The position numbers and the translations under genes were made by a program. Below, piece after piece: positions 7,479-16,975 of a stretch of 64,000 nt of DNA (position 1 is its first letter; each line of letters begins with the position of its first letter). Where the stretch lies: the IMG/VR virus record IMGVR_UViG_3300028888_002023, positions 12,176-76,175 of that record, one strand, 5' to 3'. The notes beneath the pieces are model-generated. The model worked only from the letters and a program-made list of their open reading frames with translations, ran no database searches and was not told the DNA's origin. This stretch comes from a virus (lineage: Duplodnaviria; Caudoviricetes).

Positions 7479-8438
7479 TTATAAAGCCAATACCACTTTC
7501 TTATCACATATAGCACAACCATCATGGTCTGAATAACATTGATAAACATTAGAATGACCACATGGTAGTAGCTCTATTTCTTTTAAGGATTTGTCGCAAT
7601 CTAATTCTTCTTTAAAATCAGAACTTCTATGAAAAACAACATTTCTTAAACTTTCATCATTAAAGTTTTTATGTAACTCTTCAGCTTTTAAATCATTACT
7701 AAATAAATTCTGATATGACTCTAAACCTTCCCTTTCCCTATACTTAAGGAGAAATTGCATAAACTCCATTCGTGTTGGGAAGAAATCATAACCCATTTCA
7801 TTATTAATTTCAGCTCTGGTCATATTGCACTTATCGTCTGGTTTTACAGGTGTTTTAAAGAACACGTGAGTGTCGTATTTTTGTTCAAAAGCATGGATAT
7901 CTATATCATCTCTAAGATATGCTTGAATAAAACTACCAGTTAATATAGAAGTAGTGTTAATTCTAACTTCTGGATATTTCTTGTGAATTAAAGCCATATG
8001 TTTTTCCCAATTCTTTAGCATATTAAAAGTATGAAATCTACCTATAATATCATATGAAGTTAAAATCCATAACTTATTTTTCTGTTCTATTTTATTAATT
8101 GCTTCATAAAGGTCTTTCTGGTCTCCAATAGTTAAAGTTGCGTTCAACCAAAGTTCGTTTATATCACCTTCAATTAACATACAATTTGAGAGGTCTATGA
8201 GGGTCATGAATGCCCTTTTAACCTCTGGATTATGTAATTGTCCTTGAAAGAACTCTCCACCAATAAAACCTAGCGTAGACACCTCACCTTTCTTTAAGTT
8301 TAACAACTCAATAATAGTGGTTGTCAAAGCCTGCAATTTCATTTTATCTGAAGTTTTAGTTATATTATGACCTAATGTGCAATAATCACAAAAGTTATTA
8401 CATTCCTGCCATAATTCATATTGAAGTATTTTACTCAT
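7479..8438 (-). CDS. Radical SAM protein (paralog A)
   Basis: LWQECNNFCDYC (CX3CX2C), GGEFF, TSYDIIGRF, C-terminal CGH..C..CD. Confidence 0.9.
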   Translation of the reverse strand: MSKILQYELWQECNNFCDYCTLGHNITKTSDKMKLQALTTTIIELLNLKKGEVSTLGFIGGEFFQGQLHNPEVKRAFMTLIDLSNCMLIEGDINELWLNATLTIGDQKDLYEAINKIEQKNKLWILTSYDIIGRFHTFNMLKNWEKHMALIHKKYPEVRINTTSILTGSFIQAYLRDDIDIHAFEQKYDTHVFFKTPVKPDDKCNMTRAEINNEMGYDFFPTRMEFMQFLLKYREREGLESYQNLFSNDLKAEELHKNFNDESLRNVVFHRSSDFKEELDCDKSLKEIELLPCGHSNVYQCYSDHDGCAICDKKVVLAL

Positions 8439-9483
8439 TGTCTTCCATAAATAATTTAATTCTATCTAATAATTGATGCACTAATTTTATAGCATCTTCT
8501 GCCATTTCTGGGAATGTCATATATTGAGAACCTCTTAACCTTATATAGAAGTTTTCACTTTTATTATAATCACCAGATTCTAACCTAACTTCTTTATCTT
8601 TACATTTTTCATAAAATGTCTGGCTGTACGCCAACCGAGGTGGACAATCTATTTGTAAAGAGAATATGTGAGGCACACTGTCTGGAAGTAATTTAATATA
8701 AGGTTTATTAATATACTCAATAAATTCTTCCTTCATTATTTGAGAAAAATAAGATAATTTAACTTGACGATTAAGTATTAATTTTAAAGCACCTATGTAA
8801 ATCCATAACCAATTCCAGTATTTTTCACCAAAGGTTTCCTCTGTTTTAGACCACATTAAGCCCATGTCCCATCTTCTAATTAAGGCGTGAGCTGTAGATA
8901 AAACATAGTCAAACATAGTATAATCTCTAGGAACAAGGAAGAGACCATGTACATCATCAATGACAGTGGTCACTTCCAGTCCCTTTGACTTAAGGAAGGT
9001 AAAAAGTTTTTCATAAAATCTCTGTGGAGTTATTTCTCCAGTAGTGATTTGTGTACCTATAATATAGACAAATGCTTTCTTATAAGTCTTTTTCATTAAT
9101 GCTTCTTTAACTTGACTTAAATTTAAAGAATCTATACCGTTATAATAATGAAGTATTACATGGTCTTTTTCTTCTCTATCAATCCGTTTTATAGCAGCTT
9201 TAACGGCATCATGTTCTACTACAGATGTAATAAGTAATGTATCTTCATCTACGTGTTTATCAAATAAGTAATTTATGAAATCAGTAGCGGACTTTTCGAC
9301 ATAAAGTTGATGGTTCTTAAGAGTATGTCCTAAAGGGACCATACTTCTTAACATATCCTCGTAACAAGCCCAAGTCTTTTTATCTTCTCTTCTTTCATCA
9401 TAAGGACATTTTTTATTTACAGCTTCAAGCTCTTCTCCAGCGAGCCGTTCATAATTTATCCACCATTCAGTTAATTTATTCAA
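8431..9483 (-). CDS. Class-V PLP-dependent (cysteine desulfurase-like) fold protein lacking the Schiff-base Lys
   Basis: TSVVEHDAV, TGEI, IDDVHG and STAHAL align to the IscS-type motifs EHxAV, D-x-x-Q/H and SGHK, with K replaced by A. Confidence 0.6.
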   Translation of the reverse strand: MNKLTEWWINYERLAGEELEAVNKKCPYDERREDKKTWACYEDMLRSMVPLGHTLKNHQLYVEKSATDFINYLFDKHVDEDTLLITSVVEHDAVKAAIKRIDREEKDHVILHYYNGIDSLNLSQVKEALMKKTYKKAFVYIIGTQITTGEITPQRFYEKLFTFLKSKGLEVTTVIDDVHGLFLVPRDYTMFDYVLSTAHALIRRWDMGLMWSKTEETFGEKYWNWLWIYIGALKLILNRQVKLSYFSQIMKEEFIEYINKPYIKLLPDSVPHIFSLQIDCPPRLAYSQTFYEKCKDKEVRLESGDYNKSENFYIRLRGSQYMTFPEMAEDAIKLVHQLLDRIKLFMEDNE

Positions 9484-9488
9484 CTATA

Positions 9489-10010
9489 TTACCTCTTTTT
9501 AATCGTAACATATGAGTTACCATTTGATTCAAAAATTGTTTCATAGTAATAGTCTATATTAGTATCACCAATAACTTTAATTTCGCCATTATCATAAATA
9601 ATTTGTTGTCCTAAAGCACCTATTTTAAAAGCATCTGATGTTTCGTCACAGTTGCACTTATGGTATCTAGCTAAAGAGGCTATGATTGTATCTTTTTTGA
9701 AGGTATAATCTTCATCACTGGAATTATAAATTGAAATGATAATAGGGTCATCTTTAGGCCAGTTCATTTCATAAGGTTCACAAACAACATATAAAGGTGA
9801 ATCTTCCCCTTCAATATATTCGCTCACAATACACTCATCTAATAAATCAGTTATATCCACATACAATTGAGTATCAAACTGAACTTTAGTATGTGCAGGT
9901 ATAGTTAAATCTTGATTAAGTTGTATTAGTTGTTTTCCAGATATACTTAATGATATACCTTCCTTTTCAACTAATGTAACAACTTCCCCTTTATTTATAA
10001 CAGTAATCAT
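9489..10010 (-). CDS. Degenerate trimeric dUTPase-fold protein
   Basis: LTIPAHTKVQFDTQLYV and IIISIYNSSDEDYTFKKDTIIASL match the dUTPase scaffold; RSG and GxIDxDY catalytic motifs absent. Confidence 0.5.
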   Translation of the reverse strand: MITVINKGEVVTLVEKEGISLSISGKQLIQLNQDLTIPAHTKVQFDTQLYVDITDLLDECIVSEYIEGEDSPLYVVCEPYEMNWPKDDPIIISIYNSSDEDYTFKKDTIIASLARYHKCNCDETSDAFKIGALGQQIIYDNGEIKVIGDTNIDYYYETIFESNGNSYVTIKKR

Positions 10011-15367: not shown

Positions 15368-15371
15368 ATTT

Positions 15372-16223
15372 TTAAATATCCATATATACTATAAATGCAG
15401 AGCTAGATGAACTTGATGAACTTGAAGAACTTGAACTTGAAGAACTACAAGAACTACAATTCACTGTAAAATAAGTTGAAATAACATGAATACCAGCCGT
15501 GGTATTTAGGCTATTCATGAAACTTGCTAAACTGGTTGTTAATTCTGTAGAAGTAAAAGAAGTCTGTGTATTGTCTTGAGGTACGCCATTTACGAAGGTA
15601 TCATTAAGGACAGGAATAGCAGTGTTATTATTAGTAGTTCCATATGCTGGGGACTGCTTATTAAAAGGTTCCGCAGGTGATGTATATGATGCTGTTCCAG
15701 AAGTTGACTTTGTTATACTTTCAGTAATAGTAGCACTGGAAACTGATGCATTTGAATCATATACAAAGTAACCTCTTGATGTATCAAATGGTGAATATAC
15801 TTGTACTACTTTTGCTCCCATAAAAGCTGCAAAGTTTTGGAAAAAATGTACCATAGCCTTGAATGTCATTACAGTATTATCTTTATTTGACATACCTAAA
15901 TTATTCATAAAGGTGTCAAATTGATTTGTTACTGTACTACTTGACACAGCAGTAACAAAAGAATCATTTACAGTAAGTTTTAATGTTGCAGTATGTGCTT
16001 TTCTAATAGGGTTCCAAGGTGCTGGGTGGTTGTATAATGCATAAACATTATGCATTATTGTTCCAACATTTTTTGGTGTATCAACATTTCTGGTATAACC
16101 ATCTTTTAAAGAGGCTGGTATAGAAGAAACACTGCCTATGTTACAGCATTTAGCTATTAACTGTTCTAAAGCATAATTTCTTAAATCTGAATATTTACAT
16201 ATATAATTTGAACCTATTGTCAT
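15372..16223 (-). CDS. Ser/Thr-rich putative virion protein with C-terminal NCSSC-S16-AFIVYMDI tail (candidate RiPP-like substrate)
   Basis: 283-aa ORF; 16 consecutive Ser after CSSC, encoded by mixed TCN/AGY codons. Confidence 0.7.
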   Translation of the reverse strand: MTIGSNYICKYSDLRNYALEQLIAKCCNIGSVSSIPASLKDGYTRNVDTPKNVGTIMHNVYALYNHPAPWNPIRKAHTATLKLTVNDSFVTAVSSSTVTNQFDTFMNNLGMSNKDNTVMTFKAMVHFFQNFAAFMGAKVVQVYSPFDTSRGYFVYDSNASVSSATITESITKSTSGTASYTSPAEPFNKQSPAYGTTNNNTAIPVLNDTFVNGVPQDNTQTSFTSTELTTSLASFMNSLNTTAGIHVISTYFTVNCSSCSSSSSSSSSSSSSSSSAFIVYMDI

Positions 16224-16975
16224 TATTCTTTAACCCCTTCATTTGCAGTTTCTTCTAAAATACTAAAGAAGTCTTCCATGAAACCTAAACCTGCTTGACA
16301 TTTACTTAACAATGTTGTCATAAAAACATAAGCATCATCAATATATACTAATTCACTTGTAGAAAATTCTGGTGATTTAGCAAAAATACCAGATAATGTT
16401 GCTAAATCAGATGAAAGAATCATATTTGCATAAAGTACTGGTAATTTAATATGCTCATCAGATGGAGTATACATAAATTTAGTATATGATTTAATTAAAG
16501 ATAAGAAATAAATACTTAATTGCTTAATAAATGCTTTAATATTAGCCCCTAAAGCTAACTTTATATCTAATAACTCTTCTACACTATTAAAATAAACATC
16601 TGAAGAATTAAAGAATTCATCATTAAGATTATTATAAGATTTAACTAAATTATACATATTTAGTTGCATTAAAGGGTCTGCTAAATTAGGATTATCAAAC
16701 CCATATTTAAGTGCTTCAATCTTTTGTTCAGTAGAAGCATTCTTTAAATCAAACATTACAATAACATTTGATGTATCTTCGTTAACATCTTCAACACCAT
16801 CTTCATCTGGTATTTCACAATTCTGGCTAACTCTGGTTACAAGGTACTTATCTTCATAACATTTTTCCATGATTTTAATTAAATCTTCAGCTTCAGGTGT
16901 AACCCTGATAATAACATTTTTACCTTCACAAGCTGTATCAAACTTGTAACCTTTTCCATTGTACTCTTTTAACAT
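16223..16975 (-). CDS. Hypothetical acidic protein in the radical SAM operon
   Basis: 250-aa ORF, SD GGAG, translationally coupled to the poly-Ser gene; no recognisable motif. Confidence 0.6.
   Translation of the reverse strand: MLKEYNGKGYKFDTACEGKNVIIRVTPEAEDLIKIMEKCYEDKYLVTRVSQNCEIPDEDGVEDVNEDTSNVIVMFDLKNASTEQKIEALKYGFDNPNLADPLMQLNMYNLVKSYNNLNDEFFNSSDVYFNSVEELLDIKLALGANIKAFIKQLSIYFLSLIKSYTKFMYTPSDEHIKLPVLYANMILSSDLATLSGIFAKSPEFSTSELVYIDDAYVFMTTLLSKCQAGLGFMEDFFSILEETANEGVKE

Follow-up and report, generated by a model that had tools for sequence, protein, structure and literature searches.

Gene organization of the locus

The 64,000-nucleotide stretch analysed here (hereafter the window) was taken from a 76-kb IMG/VR virus record (IMGVR_UViG_3300028888_002023) with an estimated completeness of 37%. 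This estimate implies a genome of roughly 200 kb for the source, a myophage whose tail sheath gene lies at 53255-54976 of the window. DNA of the region studied was detected in sheep and bovine gut samples, and the source is a large uncultured phage of the sheep and cattle gut. We focus on a block of minus-strand genes that encode, in order, a protein of 250 residues (X250), a protein ending in a serine/cysteine tract (S283), a tail-less paralog of the latter (S240) and six radical S-adenosylmethionine (rSAM) enzymes (R6 to R1), with genes for a 173-aa and a 350-aa protein among them (Table 1).

The initial annotation had described six rSAM paralogs with common motifs, tightly packed or overlapping on one strand behind two paralogous Ser/Thr-rich proteins and lying between two tail-fibre genes, and this description is confirmed. 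The six enzymes match each other with E values of 1e-13 to 1e-21, and W, C-x3-C-x2-C, GGE and S-x-D-x3-R are invariant in their alignment. Neighbouring genes of the block, all on the minus strand, overlap by no more than 23 nt or are separated by no more than 27 nt. The terminus NCSSC-S16-AFIVYMDI is indeed that of the open reading frame (ORF) of S283. Similarity between S283 and S240 is weak in a pairwise comparison (E 0.025), but a 198-aa homolog in a related phage (locus L007) matches both, at 4e-10 and 3e-6 respectively, and thereby links them. The bracketing genes, at 16987-18267 upstream and 5796-7439 downstream, both match tail-fibre or minor-tail families of PHROG. An N-terminal NRA-x-D...GDP...Y-x-D motif is common to the two, and the downstream one, also on the minus strand, carries collagen-like G-x-y repeats.

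Table 1. Features of the block and its immediate surroundings (coordinates refer to the window).
Feature	Coordinates	Strand	Remarks
Late-promoter-like motif TTACATTTTA, upstream of the tail-fibre-like gene heading the block	18309..18318	-	
Tail-fibre-like gene, 426 aa (context only)	16987..18267	-	PHROG tail-fibre match 4e-5; many relatives have a homolog upstream of the cassette
Perfect sigma-70 consensus promoter TTGACA-17-TATAAT, TG before -10, ~90 nt ahead of X250	17065..17093	-	
Helper X250, 250 aa	16223..16975	-	Synteny; most related loci have it beside the tailed gene(s), usually directly upstream
Tailed protein S283, 283 aa: alpha/beta body of ~255 residues and C-terminal tail	15372..16223	-	
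Ser/Cys tract C-SS-C-S16, 20 residues, candidate substrate	15399..15458	-	
C-terminal cap AFIVYMDI	15375..15398	-	
Tail-less paralog S240, 240 aa	14645..15367	-	
rSAM R6, clade A, bears C-terminal C-G-H...C-x2-C	13754..14629	-	Pfam Radical_SAM 31.9 bits
rSAM R5, clade C, without C-terminal Cys/His motif, extra conserved Cys before T-S-x-D	12823..13761	-	
rSAM R4, clade C	11940..12833	-	Pfam Fer4_12 26.7 bits
Second perfect sigma-70 consensus promoter, extended -10, gap before R3	11923..11951	-	
rSAM R3, clade B, C-terminal C-G-H-x5-C-x6-C-x2-C	10993..11916	-	
rSAM R2, clade D	10038..11015	-	
Accessory 173-aa protein, possible dUTPase-like fold	9489..10010	-	
Accessory class-V-aminotransferase-like protein, 350 aa	8431..9483	-	
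rSAM R1, clade D	7479..8438	-	
Next late-promoter-like motif, at the block end, ahead of the collagen-like fibre gene	7468..7477	-	

Conservation of the cassette

Related loci were drawn from phage contigs of 100-290 kb, and 30 were fetched from the enzyme side: 26 viral loci through one rSAM clade, one through another paralog, and three places in metagenomes. All 30 show the same synteny, a recurring cassette whose usual order is X250, one or two tailed proteins, often a tail-less paralog, and four to seven rSAM genes. Wherever the flanking sequence suffices, one or more ORFs that terminate in a Ser/Cys tract and a cap lie beside four to seven rSAMs of the family. Arrays routinely lacking a Cys/Ser-rich partner, which the initial annotation had named as evidence against its proposal, were thus not encountered among these loci. 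Three phages carry two or three cassettes (L018, L019 and L034), and in L018 and L019 the tail and the rSAMs have been duplicated together as whole cassettes.

The linkage is equally evident from the tail side. A DNA-level search of the viral collection for the cap pattern FI[AV]YM[DN]I followed by a stop codon gave 53 matches, 10 of which were true tails, and all 10 have family rSAMs in the available flank. Co-occurrence of the Cys/poly-Ser gene with this rSAM family, proposed earlier as a check, is thus strongly positive from both directions. The same DNA pattern also matches an unrelated conserved stretch, out of frame and rich in stops (...NTPPN-stop-stop-WGI..FIAYMDIC), that is common to small viral contigs (L037, L042, L050, L064, L066 and about 20 others) and probably represents a non-coding element conserved in another group of viruses.

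Searches of 50,697 phage records with the block (megablast) and with two of the paralogs (tblastn) found nothing, and tblastn with a third rSAM paralog gave marginal matches only, which led to the Chiangmaivirus cluster described below. A literature search found no description of a comparable system combining rSAMs with a Ser/Cys tail. The cassette is a conserved and, as far as found, undescribed jumbo-phage module, present in one copy in the window. Its core consists of X250, one or more tailed proteins of ~200-280 aa, often a tail-less paralog, and rSAMs of four clades.

The Ser/Cys tract and its cap

Tract and cap statistics were taken over 32 distinct tails. The tract is 8-35 residues long (median 23), and a single residue other than Ser or Cys occurs in all the tracts together. 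There are 0-8 Cys per tract, concentrated at its start, where they make up 26% of the residues in the first fifth as compared to 5-8% elsewhere; three tails are free of Cys. The tract is followed by a cap with the family motif hydrophobic-F-I-A-Y-(M/F)-x-(I/L), in which x is N, K or D in the tails found at the loci, and whose F, I, A and Y are present in 32, 30, 28 and 30 of the tails, respectively. The bodies of the tailed proteins in relatives are 22-41% identical to S283. The 16 serines of the S283 tract are encoded by a mixture of AGT, AGC, TCT and TCA codons; since both the AGY and the TCN families are used, the tract is not a slipped DNA repeat or microsatellite, and it is under selection at the protein level.

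The body of S283 is predicted to fold moderately well, and Foldseek searches of PDB and BFVD together with a wide VIA-align structure search gave nothing above a Z of 4.9. Six of 29 S283 homologs match the PHROG family "baseplate wedge subunit", to which the low-complexity tail may contribute; with a best value of 4e-4, these matches were too weak and this identity was set aside. In three independent DNA runs, assembled contigs stop at or skip the poly-Ser tract (window 15369-15472), and one DNA run shows alternative letters there; the tract may vary between strains.

The radical SAM enzymes

A tree of 135 rSAM sequences resolves four clades with support values of 0.93-1.0. These clades are ancient, and each occurs at the majority of the 30 loci, as a rule with a single copy per cassette; in the window, clades A and B have one member each and clades C and D two each. 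The C-x3-C-x2-C, GGE-type and S-x-D-x3-R motifs are kept in all four (132 sequences). The Fe-S and SAM motifs are thus intact throughout, as expected for members of the radical SAM superfamily. Pfam gathering scores are passed by R6 (Radical_SAM PF04055, 31.9 versus 29.5) and R4 (Fer4_12 PF13353, 26.7 versus 22), while R1, R2, R3 and R5 score below them. An invariant C-G-H...C-x2-C forms the end of clades A, B and D; it is missing from clade C, which carries instead a Cys, 96% conserved, directly before the T-S-x-D strand.

A profile built from the six paralogs retrieved more than 1,100 proteins from clusters at 90% identity, nearly all of them without a name and encoded on contigs of up to 289 kb. 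The family profile gave only 886 matches among 1.8 billion representative proteins, and the family is therefore distinct and compact rather than generic rSAM. In a scan of NCBIfam, no curated rSAM family model came near its cut-off for any of the six paralogs. Grouping with known cofactor- or nucleotide-modifying families, which would have spoken against the original proposal, was thus not seen at any curated cut-off, and similarity to viperin-like enzymes is weak.

Comparison with solved structures gave a less stable picture. The only significant PDB match of the six-paralog profile is YydG/EpeE (E 8e-10), over positions 4-178 including the S-Y-D strand and with no alignment to the C-terminal half of YydG. 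Profiles of the individual clades, in contrast, found nothing in PDB, or viperin at 0.07, and no YydG, and a 45-sequence pan-clade profile found viperin-like enzymes (6e-5 to 4e-4), with YydG absent. The similarity to YydG is thus not robust across profiles; since the nearest solved structure changes with the profile used, homology does not tell the chemistry of these enzymes.

In some proteins (P0164, P0208) a MiaB/RimO-like, methylthiotransferase-type rSAM is fused to a clade-C rSAM, and such fusions, together with insertions of MiaB-like genes into cassettes, hint at sulfur insertion. The N-terminal extensions of fused clade-D proteins match neither cassette proteins nor Pfam families. One cassette without a clade-C gene contains a MiaB-like gene and a plain rSAM (L026:6731-8362 and L026:8365-9951).

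Helper, accessory and neighbouring genes

The structure model of X250 is confident (pLDDT, the predicted local distance difference test, of 87). Its fold search gave a best Z of 4.5 and recognised no winged-helix recognition domain, and the family profile of X250 found no match in PDB. A complex prediction for X250 and S283 scored 0.00, which gives no verdict and is not evidence either way.

The initial annotation had assigned a pyridoxal 5'-phosphate (PLP) fold and a dUTPase fold to the two accessory genes; these labels are less firm. For the 350-aa protein, 2 of 11 family members match Aminotran_5 (1.2e-5) and Atlas features point to class-V aminotransferases (0.95), although the protein alone has no Pfam or PDB sequence match and its family profile found none in PDB either; we consider the class-V-aminotransferase fold a lead. 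The position of the cofactor lysine, S-x-H-K in functional relatives, is occupied by Ala (T-A-H-A-L), with H199 and A200 invariant in the 11 homologs, and the family has no invariant Cys; the protein is therefore not an ordinary desulfurase or aminotransferase. The 173-aa protein resembles dUTPase clusters of the Atlas in structure, with a template modelling (TM) score of 0.50-0.55, but has no sequence match in Pfam (including PF00692), and its family profile found none in PDB. Of the 30 loci, 16 have a homolog of the former (12 distinct sequences) and 10 one of the latter, nearly all in one closely related group. Both genes are lineage-specific accessories and not core parts of the cassette.

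Cassettes of relatives have other insertions, including MiaB-like and other rSAMs, carbamoyltransferases, a DegT aminotransferase and GT2 transferases. Genes of the O-carbamoyltransferase type lie in or beside 4 of 22 non-redundant cassettes (for example L023:2364-3941 and L035:10921-12603), and the L035 cassette also contains the DegT aminotransferase (4e-68) and a GT2 gene (coordinates include L035:5025-6984). In the window, a GT2 gene is located at 4639-5703, ~1.8 kb downstream of the block. GT2 as a universal partner was ruled out, as genome G003, which is complete and terminally repeated, has none, and in G002 and G004 it is not linked to the cassette.

A giant minus-strand protein at 3-4070 (more than 1,356 aa, running off the window) contains a CotH kinase domain, with a Pfam match above cut-off (E 5e-13). 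CotH kinases phosphorylate Ser-rich proteins; this candidate part of the system was ruled out as well, since CotH was found in none of five other cassette phages, four of which are at least 95% complete. Some flanks hold genes of nucleotide metabolism such as thymidine kinase, QueC and serine hydroxymethyltransferase (SHMT). No protease or transporter/exporter families were found in the cassettes or their flanks.

Comparison with known systems

YydG (EpeE), the rSAM C-alpha epimerase of the Bacillus subtilis epipeptide YydF (PDB 8ai1-8ai6), is likewise a small rSAM and acts on a ribosomal peptide. Its activity is independent of a leader peptide, and it employs two [4Fe-4S] clusters and Cys223 as hydrogen donor (PMC8326336). 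Of the clades in the cassette, C alone carries an additional conserved Cys, a candidate equivalent of Cys223. The two systems also differ in that YydG is a single enzyme that epimerises a short secreted peptide at Val and Ile, whereas the cassette has four clades and its putative substrate is a Ser/Cys homopolymer on a 283-aa protein.

The SPASM maturases of sactipeptides and ranthipeptides (SCIFF/PapB), as well as anSME, perform radical chemistry at C-alpha or C-beta of Cys- or Ser-containing targets, as proposed for the cassette. Among them, anSME makes no distinction between Ser and Cys, and its target is a full-length protein. However, the SPASM domain (PF13186) has no match in the six rSAMs, their C-terminal C-G-H...C-x2-C has too few Cys for SPASM clusters (7-8 auxiliary Cys), and their score with the hidden Markov model (HMM) of the PapB family is 16.1 bits versus a cut-off of 340 bits. 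Viperins and prokaryotic viperin-like nucleotide dehydratases are similar in size and in the N-terminal position of the cluster, but the rSAMs reach only 16-20 bits with the viperin model NF038283 (cut-off 180), and the PDB match covers mostly the N-terminal cluster and SAM motifs. Scores with the glycyl-radical activases are likewise far below cut-off (NrdG 20.1 versus 126 bits, nrdG3 15.9 versus 152). In classical clusters for peptides made on the ribosome and modified after translation (RiPPs) the precursor is short and carries a leader, whereas in the cassette the candidate core forms the C-terminus of a folded protein of 200-280 aa. The cassette would thus work like rSAM peptide maturation, yet by the criteria of these families it falls outside classical RiPP clusters, SPASM maturases, viperins and activases.

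A further parallel comes from the cultured Chiangmaivirus jumbo phages (Ralstonia RSF1 and RSL2, Burkholderia FLC6). In the RSF1 cluster (L090:6965-12972), ORF070 and ORF075 match the family HMM at 67 and 76 bits, and directly after ORF070 lies a gene for a 186-aa protein that ends in VCHSSCH(S/T)SCHGSRGRR and is conserved in RSL2 and FLC6 (L091, L092). The cluster adjoins virion structural genes, and the papers describing these phages list the rSAM genes without a function (PMC5468394, PMC8066314). Unlike that of S283, the tail of the 186-aa protein is short, consists of Cys, His and Ser, and lacks both poly-Ser and the FIAY cap; the similarity of its body to S283 is marginal (4 bits). The partner genes differ as well, being a cupin and 2-oxoglutarate (2OG) oxygenases, and an HMM search of the Chiangmaivirus clusters detected neither X250 nor the aminotransferase-like protein. 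We consider this cluster a distant analogue of the cassette.

Proposed role of the tail and alternative explanations

A functional tie between the tailed protein and the rSAMs is very likely, because the linkage holds in both directions, tail and enzymes have been duplicated together, and a pure tract with a fixed cap is under selection. The best reading of this tie, to which we give slightly better than even chances, is that the tail is the substrate of the enzymes. The rSAMs would subject the Ser/Cys tract, still attached to the folded body, to several different radical reactions, the invariant hydrophobic end would act as a docking or anchoring element, and the product would serve in conjunction with the tail-fibre or baseplate apparatus. 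Such chemistry should act equally on Ser and Cys, for example by hydrogen abstraction from C-alpha or C-beta leading to epimerisation, oxidation or cross-linking. Since 3 of the 32 tails are Cys-free, thioether cross-links are not a universal product, and the universal chemistry must work on Ser. The presence of four clades acting on a homopolymer suggests four different reactions, or a complex, rather than four target positions.

A more far-reaching version, which we put forward only tentatively and would not yet bet on, is that the four rSAM types convert an encoded Ser/Cys homopolymer on a folded phage protein into a non-canonical polymer, presented on the tail apparatus or employed by it in jumbo phages that inhabit the gut and other anaerobic environments, and that this constitutes a new class of modification. 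Possible products would be a polymer of alternating D and L residues, or a cross-linked or oxidised ladder. Maturation by rSAMs is well known for short secreted peptides and a few single protein sites; to our knowledge, neither that of a homopolymeric tail on a folded viral protein nor one with four conserved enzyme classes together is known. The RiPP-like line for virion modification proposed in the initial annotation is thus supported in part, namely as regards co-occurrence, protein-level selection on the tract and distance from cofactor- and nucleotide-modifying families at their curated cut-offs; thioether formation, among the radical chemistries that it cites, is not the universal one.

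Several points weigh against the tail being a substrate. Both the enzyme-substrate relation and its chemistry are inferred, and S283 is presumed to be in the virion from its gene neighbourhood only. The searches turned up no RiPP recognition element (RRE) domain, protease or exporter, neither X250 nor the body of S283 has a fold match, and homology offers no stable chemical lead, pointing to YydG or to viperin depending on the profile. In addition, the carbamoyltransferases, DegT and GT2 enzymes of some relatives fit a sugar or small-molecule route. This last point belongs to the main rival, in which the rSAMs and accessory enzymes would build an unusual nucleotide-activated or small-molecule group for transfer onto the tract, at the hydroxyls of Ser and the thiols of Cys, as in O- or S-glycosylation, with the tail as acceptor rather than as the radical substrate itself. 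In glycocins, transferases of family GT2 take both Ser and Cys as acceptors, and mycobacteriophages are known to glycosylate their virion proteins. The nucleotide-acting, viperin-like enzymes that are the best solved relatives of the pan-clade profile, the weak NCBIfam viperin matches of five of the six paralogs, the dUTPase-fold protein in the block and the GT2 gene downstream of it could all be accommodated by such a route. We nevertheless regard it as unlikely, because no transferase is universal, the viperin matches are largely confined to the cluster and SAM motifs and stay far below cut-off, and the parts that are universal are the four rSAM clades, X250 and the tail.

The tail might also be no target at all. 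The rSAMs could act on phage or host nucleic acid, a cofactor or a host defence target, with the tailed protein an unmodified structural or linker protein that shares only regulation and position with them; clusters of several rSAMs without known function do occur in cultured jumbo phages, the nearest solved relatives are ambiguous, and thymidine kinase, QueC and SHMT are present in some flanks. The strict adjacency despite such divergent bodies and the joint duplication in L018 and L019 would be hard to explain without a functional tie, however, and no DNA-modification partner such as DpdA recurs, so that we hold this explanation to be distinctly improbable. Least probable of all, and very nearly dismissed by us, is that the tail is a partner of the enzymes and not their product, whether as a metal- or Fe-S-binding arm, as a sacrificial donor of sulfur or hydrogen, or as a tether gathering the four rSAMs. 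It would account for the enrichment of Cys at the start of the tract, for the cysteine-desulfurase-like protein (albeit one without catalytic residues) and for the MiaB-like sulfur-inserting rSAMs fused to clade C or inserted in some relatives' cassettes. But the tract consists mostly of Ser, a poor ligand, and lacks Cys in three of the 32 tails, and nearly half of the loci have no desulfurase-like protein.

Should the tail be the substrate, the cassette would provide both new enzyme chemistry and a new kind of decoration of the virion or infection apparatus. The system is present in ruminant-gut samples, and its rSAM family comprises hundreds of representative clusters. Because Ralstonia and Burkholderia jumbo phages that carry a distant analogue are in culture, the idea is open to bench tests.

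Expression and promoter-like signals

Short contigs identical in sequence to parts of S283, X250, R6 and the fibre genes occur in a sheep-gut RNA library. They cover scattered parts of the block only, the uncovered parts being uninformative, and may stem from DNA carry-over; we take them as a weak sign of transcription of the block.

Perfect sigma-70 consensus sites (TTGACA-N17-TATAAT) occur five times in the window, versus 0.17 expected by chance, at 5754-5782, 11923-11951, 17065-17093 and 22953-22981 on the minus strand and at 48928-48956 on the plus strand, several with a TG before the -10 element. Three of the five precede X250, the clade-B rSAM and the GT2 gene. Among relatives, the site ahead of the R3 homolog was found only in L011, a close relative of the window.

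The 10-mer TTAYATTTTA, a candidate late promoter of the phage, is present in 20 copies in the window as compared to 3.4 expected. On the minus strand no copy lies between those at 18309 and 7468, which flank the block and the tail-fibre-like gene heading it. Copies of the 10-mer (for example at 18309, 18332, 26370, 37271 and 53165) are mostly located in short gaps preceding structural genes.

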